A stretch of 58,995 nt of DNA from Gemmatimonadota bacterium (GTDB lineage: Bacteria; Gemmatimonadota; Gemmatimonadetes; JACCXV01; JAHWKZ01): the NCBI GenBank assembly GCA_019347645.1, contig JAHWKZ010000001.1, forward strand, positions 1-58,995. Direction: 5' to 3'. The notes below the pieces were generated by a model. It ran no database searches. It saw only the letters and a program-made list of their open reading frames with translations, and was not told the DNA's origin. Both the position numbers and the translations under genes were made by a program. Below are positions 10,665 through 50,929 of this stretch, in pieces; positions within the stretch are counted from its first letter, which is position 1, and every line of letters starts with the position of its first letter.

Positions 10665-11477
10665 CTACGCCGCCCCCGCGCGGGCGACCTCGACGCCTCC
10701 GATCCTCCCCCCCAGGAACCGCTGCCCCACCCGGAGGAACTGCTCCGGCAGGTCGCTGACCAGGAAGCGGTGCTCCGAGACCGGATCCCCCCGCCGGGCT
10801 AGATCGCGTCGGGCGAGAAGCGCGCCCACCTCCCGGGCGGTCTCCTCCGCCGAATCGATCAGCCGAACGGAGGACCCGAGCGTCTCGCCGATCACCCCCT
10901 TCAGCAGCGGATAGTGGGTGCACCCGAGGATCAGCGCGTCGACGCCGTCGATCCGGAACGGCGCCAGGTACTCCTCGGCCACGAGCCGCGCGGCCGGGTG
11001 GTCGGTCCACCCCTCTTCGGCGAGGGCGACGAACAGGGGGCAGGGCCGTGACACGACCGTCACGTCGGGGGCCAGCGCCGTCAGGGCCTCCCGATAGGCC
11101 CCCGAGCCGATCGTCCCGTGCGTCCCGATCACGCCCACCCGCCGGTTGGTGGTGGCCGCCGCCGCGGCGCGGGCGCCGGGCTCGATCACCCCCACGATCG
11201 GCAGCTCGAACCGGTCGCGGAGGGCCGGGAGCGCGAACGCCGTGGCCGTGTTGCACGCCACCACGATCGCCTTGACGTCGTGCCGGGTGAGAAGCTCGAC
11301 GTTCTCGATCGAGAAGCGTGTTACCGTGTCGCGGGACTTGGGCCCGTAGGGGACCCGTGCGGTATCACCGAAGTAGATCAGGCGTTCGGCCGGCAGCGCC
11401 GCCATGAGCGCGTGCATGACGGTCAGTCCGCCGATGCCGGAGTCGAAAACCCCGATCGACCTCTCGCGATCGCTCAT
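10665..11477 (-). CDS. murI: glutamate racemase
   Basis: IGVFDSGIGGLTVMHAL, YFGDTARVPYGPKS, VVACNTA, LGCTHYP. Confidence 0.92.
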   Translation of the reverse strand: MSDRERSIGVFDSGIGGLTVMHALMAALPAERLIYFGDTARVPYGPKSRDTVTRFSIENVELLTRHDVKAIVVACNTATAFALPALRDRFELPIVGVIEPGARAAAAATTNRRVGVIGTHGTIGSGAYREALTALAPDVTVVSRPCPLFVALAEEGWTDHPAARLVAEEYLAPFRIDGVDALILGCTHYPLLKGVIGETLGSSVRLIDSAEETAREVGALLARRDLARRGDPVSEHRFLVSDLPEQFLRVGQRFLGGRIGGVEVARAGAA

Positions 11478-12175
11478 GGCCCACTCCCCCGGTCGGGCGC
11501 CGACCCGACGCGTAAGCGAAGGCCGGCCCGAATTCGCCGCTCGGCCGGCTCGGCCCGGATGAAGAGCGGGTCGAGCTGGGCCGAGGCGTAGGCGTCGACC
11601 GCCGCGAAGATGACGCTCAGCACGCCGTACGCGTACCAGTCGTTCCGCCGCTCCCGGAGGTCCTCGAGCTGGCCGTCGAGCTCCAGGAACTCCGGGGTGC
11701 GCCGGAACTGCTCCTCGAGCGCGAGCGAGTCCTCGGGCGCGCCTTCCGGAGGATCGGCGAAGAACGCCTCGCGCTCGGCGGCGATCTCGGCGCGCTTGTC
11801 CAGCACGTCCTGCTGCTTTCTATAGCCCAGCGTGAAGAAGGTGGCCTCGGCGACGGCGAAACCGACGCCGCGCAACGGATGGCCGGTATAGAACTGGCCC
11901 CAGCCGGGTATCAGGAAGGACCGGATGGCCGCGTTCCTCGGGTTCTTCGGCAGAACGTCCTCGCTCGGCACCCGGGCCAGCTCCTGCGGCCCGCCCCGCT
12001 CGAGGAACCGGGGCGCCAGGAGCGGGATGGTGTCGGCGGGAACGATGCTCGGCCCGGCGAGGGCTTCCACCGGGATCGGCTCGGCGGGTCGGACCTCGAC
12101 GCCCGCGGTGTCCGGCGGCGTTTCCTGGGCCGAGGCCATGTGCGCGGTGGAGGCCACCGCCACGACCACCAGCAC
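11474..12175 (-). CDS. hypothetical secreted/membrane protein (start uncertain)
   Basis: C-terminal two thirds of ORF 11474..12490. It has a signal-like VLVVVAVASTAHMASA-QE and the motif IPGWGQFYTGHP followed by a hydrophobic helix. Start set at GTG 12175. Its stop overlaps the murI ATG (ATGA). Confidence 0.5.
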   Translation of the reverse strand: MLVVVAVASTAHMASAQETPPDTAGVEVRPAEPIPVEALAGPSIVPADTIPLLAPRFLERGGPQELARVPSEDVLPKNPRNAAIRSFLIPGWGQFYTGHPLRGVGFAVAEATFFTLGYRKQQDVLDKRAEIAAEREAFFADPPEGAPEDSLALEEQFRRTPEFLELDGQLEDLRERRNDWYAYGVLSVIFAAVDAYASAQLDPLFIRAEPAERRIRAGLRLRVGSAPDRGSGP

Positions 12176-13695: not shown

Positions 13696-13794
13696 TGGCG
13701 GGAACGTGTGGGAATCGAACCCACCTCGGACGCGGCGCGCGCGCCCGATGACGGTTTTGAAGACCGCAGGGGCCACCAGACCCCATCCGCTCCC
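13696..13794 (-). tRNA. selC: tRNA-Sec (anticodon UCA)
   Basis: Minus strand GGGAGCGGAU-GGGGUC-UGGU-GGCCCC-U-GCGGU-CUUCAAA-ACCGU-(long variable arm UCGGGCGCG..CGCGUCCGA)-GUGGG-UUCGAUU-CCCAC-ACGUUCCC-G-CCA. It has a 6-bp D stem with a 4-nt loop, a UCA anticodon, a long extra arm and an encoded CCA. Confidence 0.85.
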
Positions 13795-15823: not shown

Positions 15824-16483
15824 TCAGAACGGACGGCGCCCCGCCACCCGCCGCCTGGCCAGTGGAAACAGCGCCACCAGGCCCGCGGCGCCGAGCAGCG
15901 CCGGGCGGACGGGGTCGAGCGTCTCCTCTCCCGACAGGCCAAGTCCCGCTTCGATCGTCTCGGTGTCGAGACCCGACCAGAAAGCGATCAGGAGCGTCCC
16001 GATCCCCAGCATCGCGACGTACGCCATCGGCAGGCGCGTCGTGGCGAAGAGCTCGGTCGCCAGGACCAGCGGGAGGAGCACCACCGCGAGCGAGATCTGC
16101 TCCGCGACGCTCCGCGCCGCCTCCGACCCCGCCGGGTCGAAGCCGATCACGACGGCGACCACGGCCGCGTGGTAGAGAAGGAAGAGAGTGCCGAGGCCGA
16201 TGAGCTTCCCGAGCACGTAGTCGCCGGGTCTGACTATGTTTGAAGTCAGAAGAGCGTCCAGTCCGAGTTCCCGATCCCGCCCCAGCTCGAAGGAGAGGAG
16301 GAACAGCCAGACGAGCTGCATCCCCACGATCGCCACGTCGGTCCCCACCAGTGGGTCCGACGGCGGCTGGAAGACATAGGCGATCACGCACCCCGCCGGG
16401 TGCGCTATCAGGAGCAGCACGAGAGGGCGCCAACGGAGACGCCGAACCAGCTCGAACCGGACGAGCGGCGGGATCGGGGTCAC
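15824..16483 (-). CDS. ABC-2-like permease, paralog B
   Basis: GTG at 16483 (GTGA overlap with the upstream stop): VTPIPPLVRFELVRRLRWRPLVLLLIA... Multi-TM; the sequence parallels the upstream permease. Confidence 0.65.
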   Translation of the reverse strand: MTPIPPLVRFELVRRLRWRPLVLLLIAHPAGCVIAYVFQPPSDPLVGTDVAIVGMQLVWLFLLSFELGRDRELGLDALLTSNIVRPGDYVLGKLIGLGTLFLLYHAAVVAVVIGFDPAGSEAARSVAEQISLAVVLLPLVLATELFATTRLPMAYVAMLGIGTLLIAFWSGLDTETIEAGLGLSGEETLDPVRPALLGAAGLVALFPLARRRVAGRRPF

Positions 16484-17157
16484 CGTCCTCCGAGACCCGG
16501 CAGCCTGCGCCGGACGAGAGGGAGGAGGATCAGCGTGAGGAGCGGCGAGACCACCAGCGCACGACGCGCCAACGGCCCCAACGTCTCCAATCGGTACGGG
16601 ATCACGGAAAAACCGAACGCCTGCCGGACGAACTCCGGGCCGAGAACCCATGCGACGATCCCCAGGACCACGAAGAGGACGATGACGGCGGCCAGCAACG
16701 GCAGACGAGTCTCCATCGCCGACTCGACGAGCAGGACGAGGGGCAGGAAGTAGAGAGCGAGGAGGAGGAACAGGGCCGCGTGCCAGAGGGCGTGGTCCCC
16801 GGATCCGGCCGAGGCGAGGAGGACGGTCGCCCCGACGAGCCCGCCGATCGCGACGAGAGCGATGGCGAGCGAAGCGACCTTCGCGGCCACGTACCGGTTC
16901 GGGGCGACGAAGTTCGGTACGAGGAGCTCGTCGTACGCTAGGCTCCGGTCGATCCCGAAGCCCGCGTACAGCGTGAAGACCAGCAGCGCCAGTCCGGCGT
17001 CGTCCACCCATCCCAGCGAGCCCGCACCGTAGGCGGCGGGTACGAACACCGCGTAGAGAAGCGCGACGACCTGCTGGGGCCGCGCGCGCGCGCGGCGCAC
17101 GACCTCGAAGCGAATCAGCGCGCCCAGGACCGCCGCCTCGCCGGCACGCGCCGTCAC
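16480..17157 (-). CDS. ABC-2-like permease, paralog A
   Basis: GTG at 17157 (GTGA overlap with the ATPase stop): VTARAGEAAVLGALIRFEVVRRARARP... Multi-TM. Confidence 0.65.
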   Translation of the reverse strand: MTARAGEAAVLGALIRFEVVRRARARPQQVVALLYAVFVPAAYGAGSLGWVDDAGLALLVFTLYAGFGIDRSLAYDELLVPNFVAPNRYVAAKVASLAIALVAIGGLVGATVLLASAGSGDHALWHAALFLLLALYFLPLVLLVESAMETRLPLLAAVIVLFVVLGIVAWVLGPEFVRQAFGFSVIPYRLETLGPLARRALVVSPLLTLILLPLVRRRLPGLGGR

Positions 17158-17789
17158 GGCCGTTCGATCCGGACCCGAACCCCGCCCGCCTCCGCCGGGA
17201 TCCGTTGGTTGGTCGCCACGACGACGACGGCCGTCCGGCACCGCTCTCTCAGGATCTTCGTGAGAGCCTCCTGCCCCGTCTCCGAAAGATGCGAGTACGG
17301 CTCGTCGAGGAGGACGAACGGCGCGGAACGGCGGAGCAGCGATTCGAGCAGCAACCGCTTGGCCTCGCCGGTGCTGAGGTTCGCGACTTTCGTCCGCGGA
17401 TCGGCGAAGGCGGGCCGTAGCGCCTCGCGTCGCGGTGCGCCTCCGGTGAGGGCGTCGACCAGACGGTCCCAGTCCGCCGCCCGCACCTCCGGTGGCAGGC
17501 GCATGGCCGGGTGGTAGTAGAGCGTACGGGTCGACCCGGCGCCGTCGAGCGCCACACGACCGCTCGTCGGCCGCTCGCGTCCGGCCAGCACGCGCAGGAG
17601 CGACGATTTGCCGGCCCCGTTCTCGCCGACCAGCCACGCGATCTCGCCGGCACGGTGGGCCCAATCGAAGCCCTTCAGGATCCAGGTCCGCCGGCGACGA
17701 AGGCCGAGCCCGCAGACCCGCAGCGACGGCACGCCCGACTCCTCGCGGGGGATGACCCTCAGCGCGGCGCGATCGAGCGAGCCGGTCAC
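17154..17789 (-). CDS. ABC transporter ATP-binding protein (atypical motifs)
   Basis: GTG at 17789 (GTGA overlap). Walker A GENGAGKSS, signature LSTGEAKR, Walker B FVLLDEP. The H-loop position reads VVVATNQ (no His). Confidence 0.75.
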   Translation of the reverse strand: MTGSLDRAALRVIPREESGVPSLRVCGLGLRRRRTWILKGFDWAHRAGEIAWLVGENGAGKSSLLRVLAGRERPTSGRVALDGAGSTRTLYYHPAMRLPPEVRAADWDRLVDALTGGAPRREALRPAFADPRTKVANLSTGEAKRLLLESLLRRSAPFVLLDEPYSHLSETGQEALTKILRERCRTAVVVVATNQRIPAEAGGVRVRIERP

Positions 17790-18856
17790 TCGAGCACGCA
17801 CCGATGCCAGCCCGCGTCGTGGTCGATCACGATCGCCGTCCGCGACTTCCCCAGGTACGCGAACCTCTGGGCATTGACGTCGAGGATCCAGGAGCGGAGG
17901 TACTCCAGGTCGGGGGTGGCGCGGATGATCGCCTTTTCGGTCCCGCCCTCGGGGCCGGGTCTTCCCGTACGGGTCAGGTAGAGGTAGTCGCCGCTCGCCC
18001 GGTCGTGACTCGCCGCCAGGACGGGGGTGGCGATCTCGTCGATCTCCTCCTTCTCGAACAGCTCGCTCGGTACCTTGCCCAACCGCCGGCTGGCGGCCCG
18101 GGGGACGGGGACCGTGGTCTCGCGGACGGTGAACCCGCTCCCGCGCGGCCGAATCACGAAAGCCCTGGAGGTGATGAGCTGATGAGCGGCGATCACGGTG
18201 CCGTCGCCGAGCGGGGTCAGCTCGATCAGGTTCGCGAGCGCCTCCACCCGGAGGTCGTGGAAGGGCGCGACAGGGGTCTCCAGGGGCCGGAACGCCCCCG
18301 CGTCCGCGTCCAGCACGTGGACCAGCCTCGCCACCGCGCCGCCTCGCGCGAGGGGGAACGCCGCCATCAGCACCCCCGACGGGCCCGATCGAACGACGCT
18401 GGGTGGGACGTCGGTGCGCAACACTCCCCGATCACGGCCCGCGTGATCGAGGATCTTGATCTGACGGCGTCCGACGTCGGTGATGTAGAGGAGCGAGTCG
18501 TCGACCAGCGCCACCGAGCGGGGCTGCTTCACGCCCGACGGGCCATTCTCCTCGAACTCGACCTCGAAGAGGGGTGTGGCGTCCGAACGATAATGGACCA
18601 CCCGCCGGTCGAGGCCGTAGAGGACCAGGAACGTGGAGTCCGAGGTGGCGACCAGATCCTCGACGACGCCGGCGGCCTCCGACGGTGCGTCCTGCCGGAC
18701 GCACGCGATCTTCGTGGAGCGTTCGACGAAGCCGTCGATCGTCCGGGGCGCGAGCCCCGCCTCTCCCTCGCCGCACCCGATGCCGAGGAGGAGCGCGACG
18801 GCGATGGAGAAGCGGGGGGCCTCGTTCGGTGTCCTCACCGTGGGCACGAGGGCCAA
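17786..18856 (-). CDS. beta-propeller (NHL-like repeat) lipoprotein
   Basis: MALVPTVRTPNEAPRFSIAVALLLGIGCGEG lipoprotein signal. Repeated segments such as DSLLYITDVGRRQIKILDHAGRD and DSTFLVLYGLDRRVVHY. Confidence 0.6.
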   Translation of the reverse strand: MALVPTVRTPNEAPRFSIAVALLLGIGCGEGEAGLAPRTIDGFVERSTKIACVRQDAPSEAAGVVEDLVATSDSTFLVLYGLDRRVVHYRSDATPLFEVEFEENGPSGVKQPRSVALVDDSLLYITDVGRRQIKILDHAGRDRGVLRTDVPPSVVRSGPSGVLMAAFPLARGGAVARLVHVLDADAGAFRPLETPVAPFHDLRVEALANLIELTPLGDGTVIAAHQLITSRAFVIRPRGSGFTVRETTVPVPRAASRRLGKVPSELFEKEEIDEIATPVLAASHDRASGDYLYLTRTGRPGPEGGTEKAIIRATPDLEYLRSWILDVNAQRFAYLGKSRTAIVIDHDAGWHRCVLE

Positions 18857-19014
18857 CGGACGTCGCCGTCCCGGCAGGGAGTCGGGTCCAGTCTCTTCTT
18901 CAGGCGCTCGTCCGGCTCGACCTCGCGGTTCCGGCTCGCTCGCGAAGGGAGGGCGATCGGCAGCGAGACGACCGCGAGCAGCATCGGGCGGATCGCTCGG
19001 CGGATCATCGACAT
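18835..19014 (-). CDS. small secreted peptide precursor (59 aa, 2 Cys)
   Basis: GGAGGAGGG RBS directly upstream of ATG 19014. MSMIRRAIRPMLLAVVSLPIALPSRA signal, then SRNREVEPDERLKKRLDPTPCRDGDVRWPSCPR. The 3' end overlaps the lipoprotein start by 22 nt. Confidence 0.55.
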   Translation of the reverse strand: MSMIRRAIRPMLLAVVSLPIALPSRASRNREVEPDERLKKRLDPTPCRDGDVRWPSCPR

Positions 19015-19083
19015 TCTTCCCTCCTCCTGTCGGAGTTCGATCGGAGGCTGACGGTGGCGGCGCCGTAGGAGCGGGAGGGGGGC

Positions 19084-19123
19084 GACGATCGTCGGGCTCG
19101 TTCGACGGTCTCCGACGATCGTC
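19084..19123 (-). promoter_or_regulatory. 12-bp perfect stem-loop / twin GACGATCGTC palindromes between the two peptide genes
   Basis: GACGATCGTCGG (19084-19095) pairs with CCGACGATCGTC (19112-19123), with a 16-nt loop. It begins 10 nt after the stop of the 71-aa peptide gene. Confidence 0.45.
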
Positions 19124-19132
19124 ACCGCGGGC

Positions 19133-19348
19133 TCAGAAGCCCGTCCTGCCCTTGACGCAGCCGACGAACGACGCGAAGCACTCGATGAACTTGAGCTCCC
19201 GGATGAGCCAGTTCGACTTCTGCCAGGCGATGATCTGGCATCCCTCGTAGTCCTCGGTGCAGCCGGCCAACGCCGGGGCGGGGGCGACCGAACTGGCCCC
19301 GACCGCCACCAGTGCGGCCAGCAGGATACTTCGTCCACTCGACCTCAT
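19133..19348 (-). CDS. small secreted or lipidated cysteine-rich peptide precursor (71 aa, 4 Cys)
   Basis: GAAGGAGGGAAGG RBS before ATG 19348. MRSSGRSILLAALVAVGASSVAPAPALAGC signal (LAGC could be a lipobox). Mature part CTEDYEGCQIIAWQKSNWLIRELKFIECFASFVGCVKGRTGF. High GC3. Confidence 0.65.
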   Translation of the reverse strand: MRSSGRSILLAALVAVGASSVAPAPALAGCTEDYEGCQIIAWQKSNWLIRELKFIECFASFVGCVKGRTGF

Positions 19349-19657
19349 CCTTCCCTCCTTCGTCTGGGTTGGAGAACGGGAAGGCGGCCGCGCGCTCCCT
19401 CCGCCAGCCGGACCGGCCCCCTCCCTGGCCGATCCTTTCAGATTCGGCGCGCGGCGCGCCTTCGATACCGTCGACGACCGGCCGCTCCACTCCCCGGATG
19501 CTTCCGGCCGTGACGCGCGGATCCAGGGGGAGCACGATCGGGGCCGTTCCGGAATCGAAGCCGGGGGCGAATCGGCAACGCGTTGATCGGGAAGGGTTTA
19601 GGGACCGAGGGAGCGGGGCGGGACGGGGCGGCGCCCGATCGGGCGCGGGCTCGACTG

Positions 19658-29426: not shown

Positions 29427-29474
29427 AGGGATCGAGACGGCTCGGGATCGGGGAAACGCGACACCATGGCGAAA

Positions 29475-29570
29475 GCCCCAGGCGAGCCGCAGCGACCCGA
29501 CTCTCCACGTACCGCTGCTACCTTCCGGTCCTGACGGGGTTGATGGCGTCGAGCCCTGGGGGCCTGGGGC
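29475..29570 (-). ncRNA. ffs: signal recognition particle RNA (4.5S type)
   Basis: The minus strand contains GUCAGGACCGGAAGGUAGCAGC (E. coli 4.5S: GUCAGGUCCGGAAGGAAGCAGC), closed by GCCCCAGG...CCUGGGGC. It sits in the classic position upstream of dnaX. Confidence 0.85.
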
Positions 29571-49095: not shown

Positions 49096-49263
49096 TTAGC
49101 CGAGCGCCGCAGCGATGTTTTCGAAGACGGTCATGATGTTCCCGCCCAGCAGGGTGACCGCCGCGATCACCACGATGGCGATCAACGCGATCAGCAGGGC
49201 GTACTCGGCGAGGTCCTGACCGGCCTCGTCGTTCCACAGGGCGTTCCAGAGTAGTGCCAGCAT
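49096..49263 (-). CDS. flp: Flp family type IVb pilin (downstream copy, 55 aa)
   Basis: GGAGGAAACGCA-ATG. MLALLWNALWNDEAG-QDLAEYALLIALIAIVVIAAV has the Flp G/xxxxEY processing motif plus a hydrophobic helix. Confidence 0.9.
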   Translation of the reverse strand: MLALLWNALWNDEAGQDLAEYALLIALIAIVVIAAVTLLGGNIMTVFENIAAALG

Positions 49264-49307
49264 TGCGTTTCCTCCCCGGCGCTCAGGCCGCGTTGGGGTG
49301 TCTGAGA

Positions 49308-49517
49308 TCAGCTGAACGGCAACGTGGCGACGATGTCGTTGTACATCGCCACGAGCGCGTCGCCGAACAGGGCGACGGCGCCCACCACGACGAGCGCGAT
49401 GAGCCCGATCAGGATCGCGTATTCCGCGAGGTCCTGACCGTCCTCGTTCCGCCGATCTCCCGGCGCGTCCCGCGACGGGGTGCAGTCCTGGATCTCGAGC
49501 GGAGCTCGCTGGCTCAT
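49308..49517 (-). CDS. flp: Flp family type IVb pilin (upstream copy, 69 aa, long leader)
   Basis: GAGGAAACG-ATG. MSQRAPLEIQDCTPSRDAPGDRRNEDG-QDLAEYAILIGLIALVVVGAV. Confidence 0.85.
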   Translation of the reverse strand: MSQRAPLEIQDCTPSRDAPGDRRNEDGQDLAEYAILIGLIALVVVGAVALFGDALVAMYNDIVATLPFS

Positions 49518-49930
49518 CGTTTCCTCGTTCGGAGGTCGTGATGTCTGCCGGTGACCGCGGGAAGAAGGAGCATCGGCCGTACCGAACCGGCCGGGCCCGA
49601 TCGAGAGGTCGGGCCGGGTCGAAGAGGCGATTTGGAGCCGCGAGCGGGCGGGCGGGAAGAGGCGGCGAGATCGCATCGGAAGGACGTTGCCGCGACGGAA
49701 AGGGTCTTCCATCGGCGAGGAACTTCGGTACCGATCCGGCGTCGGCCGACGGGAGCGGACGCGGGGGCATGGCTCCGTCGAAGATCCTGCGTCCTTCCGT
49801 GCAACCGGCTCGGAGCACTGTACTTAGGAGACTTTTGGACGGTATTCTGCCGATCCGGCTTGCATTCTGCCGGCTTCGGGGTGCCACGGGAGGGTCCAAG
49901 GGGCGCGTCGGGCTGCGCGGCGGCGGCCGC

Positions 49931-50929
49931 TCAGGCCTCGATCTCGTACCGTTTGACCTTGTTGAGGAGGGACTTGTAGCTGATCTCGAGGTCGGCGGCT
50001 GCCCGCTTCTTGTTCCACTTCGCCGCCTGGAGCGCGCGTTCGATCGCCTGCGACTCGATCCGGGCGACTACCCGGGCCACCATCTGCTTGAGGGGCAGGC
50101 CGGAGTCGAGGATCTCCTCATCGGTGGAGCCACCCGGTCCTTTCTTGCTGCCCAGCTCCTCGCGGATCGTTTCCTCGTCTTCGATCACCAGGAAGCGCCG
50201 GATCACCCGCTCGAGCTCGCGGACGTTGCCCGGCCAGCGGTACCCCTGCAGGAACTTGACGAACCCGGTCCGCAGGACGCGGATCTTCGAACCGTAGAAC
50301 GTGCCGTACTTCTGAAGGATGTGGTTGGCGAGCAGCGGGACGTCCTCCGGACGGTCGCGCAGCGGCGGGACCTCGATCCGAACGGCTCCACCGACCGCCC
50401 CCCACTCCTTCTCGAGCTTGTCGAGCGCGGAGTTTCCTAGCGACGGCTGCTCGCAGGAGAGGACGAACCGCGGCTCCGAGCCGTCCGCGGCGCGCTGACG
50501 CTTCCACTCGCGCAGCCGCTCGCTCAGCTCTGCGGGAAGGGATTCGATGCCGTGGATGTAGAGGGTGCCCCCGCCGACCGCCTCGAGCTTGCCGCCGTCA
50601 CCGCCGTCGAACAGCTCCCTTTCGATCGCGGCGCTCGGGATCGCGTAGCAGTTGAGCGAGGCGAGGGGACGCGAGGCCCGACTCGAGAGATCGTGGATCC
50701 CGCGGGCGAGGATCTCCTTGCCGACGCCGCGCTCGCCGCACAGCACCACGGTCAGCGAAGTATCGGCCACCTGGCCGAGGCGCTCGCGCGCGGCGATCAC
50801 GCGCTCGTCGACGCTCAGCAGGAAGTTCGGATGACCGCCGATCTCCCAGTAGGCGGACGCCGGGGGGTCGGGGCTACCGTCCGTTCGCGCGGGGGATGCG
50901 GGCTCGGCAGTCACGGCGCGGCTAGACAA
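49931..50929 (-). CDS. sigma54-activator-like AAA+/Fis-HTH regulator lacking a GAFTGA loop and the Walker B acidic pair
   Basis: VVLCGERGVGKE Walker A, VPPLRDRPEDVPLLANHIL, PGNVRELERV, and a C-terminal IERALQAAKWNKKRAAADLEISYKSLLNKVKRY HTH. There is no receiver domain. TTG start at 50929, or GTG at 50914. Confidence 0.8.
   Translation of the reverse strand: MSSRAVTAEPASPARTDGSPDPPASAYWEIGGHPNFLLSVDERVIAARERLGQVADTSLTVVLCGERGVGKEILARGIHDLSSRASRPLASLNCYAIPSAAIERELFDGGDGGKLEAVGGGTLYIHGIESLPAELSERLREWKRQRAADGSEPRFVLSCEQPSLGNSALDKLEKEWGAVGGAVRIEVPPLRDRPEDVPLLANHILQKYGTFYGSKIRVLRTGFVKFLQGYRWPGNVRELERVIRRFLVIEDEETIREELGSKKGPGGSTDEEILDSGLPLKQMVARVVARIESQAIERALQAAKWNKKRAAADLEISYKSLLNKVKRYEIEA

Follow-up and report, generated by a model that had tools for sequence, protein, structure and literature searches.

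The 58,995-nucleotide contig JAHWKZ010000001.1 (assembly GCA_019347645.1; in full, the 59-kb stretch that we call the window, with a G+C content of about 70%) derives from a metagenome-assembled genome (MAG) of the Gemmatimonadetes and carries a compact operon for one or more small exported peptides, a propeller lipoprotein and an ATP-binding cassette (ABC) module. This operon is real, conserved and uncharacterised, and it has so far been seen in Gemmatimonadota only. Each of its parts is of a known kind: the peptide depends on Sec, the propeller is NHL-like, the exporter ABC-2-like and the control of the sigma-54 type. The protein families and their combination are undescribed. A preceding reading of the bare sequence, hereafter the earlier note, had not recognised a described system at this position, and indeed none of the families of the module has previously been described.

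Gene structure of the operon

Six co-directional open reading frames (ORFs) on the minus strand, already called as such in the earlier note, were recovered at the same coordinates (Table 1). The G+C content at third codon positions (GC3) ranges from 0.86 to 0.91 across the six frames (0.90 for pep1 and 0.88 for pep2), and the overall G+C content of windows over the locus (0.67-0.72) falls inside the range of the remaining contig. Both peptide genes begin with ATG preceded at a distance of 5 nucleotides (nt) by GGAGG, so the strong ribosome-binding sites attributed to them are present. GTGA overlaps of start and stop codons occur at 18838, 17789, 17157 and 16483. These overlaps are real, and the chain that they form comprises five genes rather than the four counted before, because the lipoprotein start at GTG 18838 overlaps the stop codon of pep2.

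Related loci were gathered in two ways, via the lipoprotein and via the peptide, which resulted in 16 distinct loci. They fall into clade 1 (the window, L002, L003, L004, L022, L025 and L026) and clade 2 (L006-L019). The ORFs exceed what chance would produce, since pep1 has 53 homologues with an invariant cysteine pattern and the gene order recurs in the 16 distinct loci.

Searches of the six proteins against Pfam, NCBIfam and PADLOC yielded generic ABC ATPase matches only. The view that the module lacks a modification enzyme holds: none of the six window proteins matched the LanB/C/M, radical-SAM, YcaO or C39-peptidase families in Pfam or NCBIfam, and no genes of these kinds adjoin the module in the related loci. 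Neither a sigma-70 promoter nor a credible terminator was found within the operon region.

Table 1. Positions of the operon genes and associated regulatory features in the window (aa, amino acids; TM, transmembrane segments; RBS, ribosome-binding site; AF2, AlphaFold2 model)
Feature	Positions	Strand	Basis
Sigma-54-type -24/-12 promoter-like element CGGCCCCGATCGTGCT (GG-N10-GC)	19531..19546	-	positional conservation
Structured 5' leader RNA, two hairpins, 49 base pairs	19378..19516	-	conservation, covariation
pep1, 71-aa preprotein	19133..19348	-	ORF, RBS, 53-member family
GC-rich intercistronic stem-loop just past the pep1 stop	19081..19126	-	folding
pep2, 59-aa ORF, GTGA-coupled to the lipoprotein gene	18835..19014	-	ORF, L022 orthologue
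Lipoprotein, 350 aa, NHL-like beta-propeller	17786..18838	-	AF2, Foldseek, profile
ABC ATPase, 215 aa (211 aa from the GTGA-overlap start 17789)	17154..17801	-	ABC_tran
Permease 1, 225 aa, ~6 TM, ABC-2-like	16480..17157	-	hydropathy, paralogy
Permease 2, 219 aa, ~6 TM, ABC-2-like	15824..16483	-	hydropathy, paralogy

The twin-CX6C peptide pep1

The signal peptide of the window pep1 ends with ALA directly before GC and leaves a mature part of 43 aa with four cysteines in the spacing C-x6-C-x19-C-x6-C; the size and cysteine content previously assigned to this mature part, and to the ~33-aa tail of pep2 with its two cysteines, are thus correct. A profile search for the pep1 family retrieved 53 proteins. 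Where a source name is given it is always Gemmatimonadota or Longimicrobiales, and the database names are mostly missing and otherwise read 'hypothetical'; pep1 itself has no Pfam or NCBIfam match. All 53 members possess exactly four cysteines in the arrangement C-x6-C-x18/19-C-x6-C, and in all 53 a Sec signal ending in A-x-A is followed by one variable residue and then by Cys1, with a mature length of about 40-43 aa. The peptide is hence conserved in the way that the earlier note had proposed to check, and its description as a Sec-exported, unmodified four-cysteine mini-protein with a Sec rather than a double-glycine leader is borne out by the whole family.

The sequence LAGC of clade-1 members could be taken for a lipobox and pep1, accordingly, for a lipoprotein. 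This assignment was rejected: the residue preceding Cys1 is S, D, G, E, P or yet another one across the family, some clade-1 members have Q or E at position -3, and A-x-A suits all members. The variability of the residue before Cys1 argues for a signal peptidase I site instead of a lipobox.

AlphaFold2 (AF2) predicts a helix-loop-helix for pep1, with helices at residues 24-42 and 47-69 separated by a four-residue loop and a predicted local distance difference test score (pLDDT) of ~85 across precursor residues 31-60. Cysteines at i and i+7 share one helical face, so that an alpha-hairpin with two nested disulfides fits the sequence, and the modelled hairpin is probably pinned by two such bonds. 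As read from the sequence, most faces of the second helix (WLIRELKFIECFASFVGCV) are hydrophobic, and this points to contact with a partner or the membrane. Foldseek found no significant match for the AF2 model in the PDB. Likewise, the family profile found nothing at E <= 10 among the PDB chain sequences, a set which presumably holds the nuclear magnetic resonance structures of sublancin and glycocin F.

Purifying selection spans the whole of mature pep1, including the polar motifs CLNDSWD and ADVECFAEYVGC. The peptide ranks among the better-conserved proteins of the module: its identity amounts to 62-69%, compared with 47-54% for the lipoprotein and the permeases and 66-72% for the ATPase.

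Decay of pep2 and turnover of the peptide genes

Judging by comparison with its relatives, pep2 is a decaying paralogue of pep1. Its orthologue in L022 is 66 aa long, shares the MxxIRRAIRPML signal and has its twin-CX6C core intact; it aligns with the pep1 family in hhalign with a probability of 91.5% (E = 8.7e-7). The window pep2 retains the signal peptide and 'LDPTPC', has lost 12 nt and the first CX6C pair, and carries its last two cysteines at a spacing of x9. The copy in L004 contains no cysteine at all; in L002 and L003 pep2 has lost its body, with the start and the signal fused onto the lipoprotein ORF. We considered whether pep2 was merely the detached signal peptide of the lipoprotein and dropped this idea, given the intact orthologue in L022. 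The notion of a pair of cysteine-paired peptides therefore fails: only pep1 is conserved, the cysteines of pep2 are not, and relatives either lack the pep2 gene or have it in fused form.

Loci contain between one and three peptide copies that show births and decay, and the handler genes remain single. Extra diverged copies are found after the lipoprotein gene in L004 (one) and after the permease gene in L011 (two), and L019 has two copies in front; hence, the peptide gene undergoes birth and death. One promoter-proximal copy is strongly conserved throughout.

The propeller lipoprotein

The lipoprotein, labelled 'hypothetical protein KY397_00115' at NCBI, has no Pfam or NCBIfam family. Of its two candidate starts, GTG 18838 (350 aa) is likelier than TTG 18856 (356 aa), since the 350-aa form is both the NCBI/nr sequence and the Logan-contig call. 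Cys22 (the lipobox cysteine), Cys46 and Cys347 are invariant in nine homologues. The AF2 model is all-beta and of high quality (pLDDT 85.7, predicted template modelling score 0.86); its strands form six four-stranded blades, the last of which is completed by the N-terminal strand. The nearest structures in Foldseek are the six-bladed NHL domains of Brat, TRIM71, TRIM2 and Thin (E ~1e-10), at target-normalised template modelling scores of 0.67-0.74. At the sequence level, the family profile matches the NHL-derived 'Pizza' propellers (E = 9e-8), the TRIM3/Thin NHL domains (E = 0.006-0.009) and the sensor domain of PknD (E = 0.049). The Pfam NHL family leaves the window protein unmatched and weakly matches one of the nine homologues (E = 0.06). 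At the level of the fold, the evidence thus agrees with the NHL-like propeller lipoprotein that had been described as a 356-aa protein; it is the start codon that probably needs to be moved.

The ABC ATPase and the permeases

One ABC ATPase and two paralogous small permeases are encoded, as had been stated. The ATPase is a divergent one; it matches ABC_tran of Pfam (1.8e-17), and its Walker A, Walker B and signature motifs are intact. The H-loop histidine is replaced by asparagine in nine of ten relatives and the Q-loop glutamine by histidine or arginine. Its best NCBIfam match is CcmA with 82 bits, short of the cut-off of 131.6; this link was discarded as sub-threshold, and there are no CcmB or CcmC matches.

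Permeases 1 and 2 are 34% identical (E = 7e-9). Both are about 220 aa long, with some six hydrophobic segments and short loops. Permease 2 matches ABC2_membrane_3 weakly (E = 0.023), and members of the permease family match ABC2_membrane below threshold (E = 2.5e-4 to 0.025). The six-TM topology together with an N-terminal amphipathic, R-rich segment is consistent with the ABC-2 (type V) family. Among 1.84 billion representative proteins, the permease 1 family accounts for only 74 clusters.

Co-occurrence and genomic context

By either search route, pep1 lies directly upstream of the lipoprotein gene in 16 of 16 distinct loci; on every contig of sufficient length, the ATPase gene and one or two permease genes come next. 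The co-occurrence of peptide, lipoprotein and ABC genes, which the earlier note had put forward as a check on its reading, is therefore evident across genomes. Clade-1 loci have two permeases and are situated between SbcCD-like genes and ispH; clade-2 loci have a single permease and other neighbours, including a fumarase and, invariably and directly upstream, a sigma-54 activator. Because the flanks differ between the clades, the conserved unit consists of the peptide or peptides, the propeller lipoprotein and the ABC module. The ispH gene is outside this unit, as can be deduced from L002, in which two foreign genes, a SocA_Panacea-domain gene and a 118-aa ORF (11145-12081), are inserted between permease 2 and ispH.

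No presence/absence polymorphism of the module was seen in the loci examined, and a search of the plasmids in PLSDB returned zero matches. A radical SAM gene near clade-2 loci was considered as a maturase gene and rejected: it is ~80% conserved and housekeeping-like, lies some 3.5 kb away in the opposite orientation and is absent in the L016-type context.

Two conserved ORFs are convergent to the clade-2 operon (L012 3338-4205, minus strand; L016 10920-11725, minus strand). One encodes an R/G/Y-rich low-complexity protein of 151-173 aa and the other a protein of 86-95 aa ending in GVGFAEE..ATEHKTGRTDE; both look stress-related.

Promoter, leader RNA and intercistronic stem-loop

A GG-N10-GC element of the sigma-54 type is conserved in position upstream of pep1 in 13 of 14 distinct upstream regions (5/5 in clade 1 and 8/9 in clade 2), at -196 to -205 from the pep1 ATG in clade 1 and at -92 to -119 in clade 2. 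In the clade-2 intergenic alignment, GG.CC......TGC is the sole invariant cluster near the promoter besides the Shine-Dalgarno sequence and the ATG. The pattern is no rarer in the window than expected by chance (2 found vs 1.6 expected); since its presence in one GC-rich window is unremarkable, the assignment to sigma-54 rests on positional conservation and on the adjacent activator. This activator, encoded directly upstream of the clade-2 operon (e.g., L016 6539-7603), is a protein of 343-354 aa that comprises an AAA+ domain with GAFTGA and a helix-turn-helix (HTH) only. Its architecture is PspF-like and sensor-less.

No GAFTGA activator adjoins the operon of the window, and the only activator-like ORF in the window (49931-50929, minus strand) lacks GAFTGA. 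The latter encodes 332 aa with a Walker-type GERGVGK sequence and 28% tblastn identity to the clade-2 activator. Within the region 49096-50929 (minus strand) it neighbours an ORF whose C-terminus resembles Flp-type pilin (DLAEYALLIALIAIVVIAAV); we therefore consider it unrelated to the operon, and it may regulate a Tad/Flp pilus.

Upstream of the promoter-like element, a palindrome CAACGCGTTG is present at 19576-19585 (minus strand), roughly 30 nt from the -24 element. Similar palindromes of the form CAAC-N2-4-GTTG, as well as TGCGCG...CGCGCA inverted repeats, are present ahead of the promoter in clade-2 loci (alignment A11, columns ~145-160). These elements may be sites for the activator or for integration host factor.

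In clade 1, a leader of 139 nt separates the promoter element from pep1. It is the best-conserved DNA of the locus, with an identity of 89-92% between genomes, whereas the operon genes reach 62-78% and ispH reaches 83-85%. Standard pairs occupy 96.9% of the pair cells of the predicted structure, and compensatory changes occur at five pairs; just one of the 500 shuffles attained the covariation score, and pairing in slid controls stays at 35-52%. The power of this covariation analysis is low, as it draws on six distinct sequences, a scan of metagenomes having yielded only two loci. The covariance model R1 built from the leader finds one leader per clade-1 locus and none elsewhere, and no Rfam family matches it. 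Its loops are rich in GGGAG/AGGGAG, and a 3' strand CCUUCC can pair either with GAAGG in the 5' part of the leader or with the Shine-Dalgarno sequence of pep1, an alternative that suggests translational control of pep1.

A strong, GC-rich stem-loop follows the pep1 stop codon in 12 of 12 loci that were folded (seven of clade 1, five of clade 2), varying in sequence and kept in structure; in the window it has 15 base pairs. It has no U-tail and no terminator was called there. Such a structure is compatible with the peptide being more abundant than the proteins encoded downstream.

A further candidate role is a peptide signalling circuit, in which pep1 would be an autoinducer-like signal in the periplasm or outside the cell, the propeller would be its receptor, and the ABC complex would relay occupancy to the sigma-54 activator and thereby feed back on the operon. 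An activator that consists solely of AAA+ (GAFTGA) and HTH is by implication controlled in trans, and ABC ATPases can control transcription factors, as MalK does with MalT. The degenerate H-loop and Q-loop of the ATPase and the use of NHL propellers as sensor domains agree with such a role as well. The window's clade has no linked activator, however, and neither clade offers the peptide a route across the outer membrane; the circuit is moreover wholly inferential, the contact between ATPase and activator included. We regard it as quite improbable.

Comparison with described systems

Lantibiotic producers are protected by LanFEG/LanI systems, whose layout is one ATPase, small six-TM paralogous permeases and a lipoprotein. 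The window operon resembles NisFEG/NisI and SpaFEG/SpaI in having an ATPase, two paralogous six-TM permeases and a lipoprotein near a gene for a small exported peptide, and to this extent the LanFEG/LanI-type reading of the earlier note is justified. It does not extend to the proteins: LanF, LanE and LanG are unmatched in Pfam and NCBIfam, with CcmA as the nearest, sub-cut-off family of the ATPase, and the lipoprotein is a six-bladed NHL-like propeller that matches no LanI family. Furthermore, the peptide is unmodified and Sec-dependent, no lanthipeptide precursor or LanB/C/M gene is linked, the host is diderm, the promoter is of the sigma-54 type and the sister clade makes do with a single permease.

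Staphylococci provide another parallel, in that the phenol-soluble modulins (PSMs) are core-genome helical peptides of variable paralogue number that are served by PmtABCD, an ABC-2-type transporter with two permeases. PmtABCD both exports the PSMs and protects the producer. Unlike pep1, PSMs have neither signal peptide nor disulfides and are exported from the cytoplasm, and Pmt has no lipoprotein.

The closest resemblance of the peptide itself is to the glycocins, which are helix-loop-helix peptides of ~40 aa with two C-x6-C pairs and nested disulfides (PMC5974097, PMC10125368, PMC6405829). These bonds connect Cys7-Cys36 and Cys14-Cys29 in the (CX6C)2 peptide sublancin, and Cys5-Cys28 and Cys12-Cys21 in glycocin F (PMC5974097, PMC10125368). 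With its ~40 aa, two C-x6-C pairs and predicted helix-loop-helix, pep1 looks like sublancin 168, glycocin F and pallidocin. In contrast to these, its locus is devoid of a SunS-type glycosyltransferase, a SunT-type peptidase/ABC exporter, Bdb genes and a double-glycine leader; at 18-19 residues, the spacing between its helices exceeds that of the glycocins, the window's clade conserves no glycosylated loop residue, and sequence homology is not detectable.

The removal of a periplasmic mini-protein by an ABC machine has a precedent in the enterotoxin STII (STb), which is Sec-exported, has two disulfides and is taken from the periplasm by MacAB-TolC (PMC5985334). Both STII and pep1 are made as small Sec-exported preproteins, with the two disulfides shown for STII and proposed for pep1. 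The machines differ: MacB is a four-TM type VII protein with a large periplasmic domain that needs MacA and TolC, whereas the permeases of the present operon are small, six-TM and ABC-2-like, and no adaptor or TolC gene is found in the loci.

A periplasmic beta-propeller of unknown role is encoded in the ABC operon PedA1A2BC (PMC6839425), in which the propeller gene likewise lies beside ATPase and permease genes. PedA2 is of the YVTN type, and Ped includes a substrate-binding protein and serves lanthanide-dependent growth; here, the propeller is NHL-like, a cysteine-peptide gene is present, and there is neither a substrate-binding protein nor a pyrroloquinoline quinone/lanthanide context.

This precedent is also among the arguments for an envelope-maintenance or stress module, in which exporter and propeller would move or sense a hydrophobic envelope component unrelated to pep1, and pep1 would be a stoichiometric periplasmic accessory or regulatory subunit rather than cargo or an effector. 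The vertical inheritance inside housekeeping neighbourhoods and the purifying selection along the entire mature peptide accord with such a role. So do the sensor-less PspF-type activator of clade 2, which has its like in membrane-stress regulons, and the function of extracytoplasmic NHL propellers as sensor domains, e.g., in PknD, to which the lipoprotein profile matches. Subunits rarely vary in copy number, however, and here one to three peptide paralogues occur, some of them decaying; the stem-loop after pep1 argues for a non-stoichiometric excess, and neither clade has an alternative substrate or biosynthetic gene linked to the module. On balance, we consider an envelope module of this kind the main rival reading, if a somewhat unlikely one.

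A proposed peptide-handling module

A peptide-centred function is favoured by the invariant linkage of pep1 to the other genes, by peptide paralogues that come and go beside a handler that stays stable, and by the stem-loop, the LanFEG/LanI-like layout and the STII/MacAB precedent. We tentatively suggest, with confidence that stays somewhat short of even, that the operon is a dedicated peptide-handling module specific to the Gemmatimonadota lineage. As a part of this proposal, the propeller lipoprotein and the ABC-2 exporter may have pep1 as their cognate ligand or cargo, an assignment that is equally provisional.

Transcription would start at the sigma-54-type promoter; in the sister clade, a PspF-like activator is encoded beside the operon. 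The RNA of the window's clade would pass through the 139-nt leader, where CCUUCC could pair inside the leader or with the Shine-Dalgarno sequence of pep1. The peptide would be translated first and, owing to the stem-loop past its stop codon, is probably made in excess of the downstream proteins; the pep2 ORF would now chiefly provide translational coupling to the lipoprotein gene. Sec would export pep1, signal peptidase I would cut after A-x-A, and in the periplasm the peptide would be oxidised to an alpha-hairpin of ~43 aa with nested disulfides C1-C4 and C2-C3 and one largely hydrophobic helix. There, the membrane-anchored six-bladed propeller may bind it, and the ABC-2-type exporter, assembled from an ATPase dimer and a heterodimer of permeases 1 and 2, would remove it from the periplasm or from the inner membrane's outer leaflet. 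Such clearance may serve self-protection, onward release or both. In this scheme, the gene structures, family conservation, co-occurrence, folds, promoter-like element and RNA structure come from the data presented above; the disulfides, the binding of the peptide by the propeller, the substrate and direction of transport, and the regulation are proposals.

Several observations weigh against this peptide-handling proposal. The net charge of the mature peptides ranges from -7 to +1 with a median of -2, i.e., they are neutral to acidic. The module is vertically inherited in a conserved housekeeping synteny of the chromosome, and this synteny and the conservation of pep1 fit better with a physiological partner than with an arms-race toxin. 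In none of the loci does the module have a linked adaptor or outer-membrane component, and no member of the module passes the sequence tests for LanFEG, LanI or bacteriocin families. The atypical H-loop and Q-loop make it uncertain whether the ATPase could support vigorous pumping, and the best PDB match of the permease profile, PmtD, is non-significant (E ~0.9).

The same observations bear on a narrower version of peptide handling, a classical bacteriocin with LanFEG/LanI-type immunity, in which pep1, with or without pep2, would kill competitors and the module would protect the producer only. The order of the genes suits such a system (peptide genes, then a lipoprotein, one ATPase and two paralogous ABC-2 permeases), as do the glycocin-like (CX6C)2 scaffold (PMC5974097) and the turnover of peptide paralogues. 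It is disfavoured by the acidic to neutral peptides, the strong purifying selection, the vertical conservation in housekeeping synteny without plasmid or mobile context, the degenerate state of pep2 in the window, the missing outer-membrane route and the failure of its proteins to join any of the pertinent sequence families, and we judge it very improbable. A function as toxin plus immunity is possible; the secreted toxin envisaged in the earlier note does not follow, since the hosts are diderm and no outer-membrane export component is linked.

Implications

Irrespective of function, the operon adds three unannotated protein families (those of the twin-CX6C mini-protein, of the lipoprotein with its NHL-like propeller and of the ABC-2-like permease) and an unannotated structured leader RNA from a phylum that is abundant in soil and has almost no characterised secreted peptides or envelope systems. 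The distribution is narrow and the function is inferred. Should pep1 be an effector, it would show that a diderm can make a glycocin-like (CX6C)2 scaffold without glycosylating it and export it through Sec. The propeller lipoprotein could then stand in for LanI-type immunity proteins and the ABC complex might report the peptide load to a PspF-like activator, which together would amount to a diderm peptide toxin or signal of a new class, with a mechanism of protection or relay that is likewise new. Should pep1 instead be a periplasmic partner, it would offer a bacterial counterpart to the twin-CXnC helical hairpins of the mitochondrial intermembrane space. The most far-reaching description combines a Sec-dependent, unmodified relative of the glycocin scaffold in a diderm phylum, a new propeller-lipoprotein/ABC-2 machine whose ATPase lacks the catalytic His and Gln, sigma-54 control through a sensor-less activator, and a new leader RNA in one of the two clades; taken as a whole, we think it unlikely to hold.

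Other RNA genes in the window

Two further RNA genes were detected on the minus strand of the window with Rfam models. The first encodes the bacterial small signal recognition particle RNA (29473-29569; 55.3 bits). The second is a gene for the selenocysteine tRNA (13700-13794; tRNA-Sec, 74.4 bits), and the organism represented by the MAG therefore probably uses selenoproteins.

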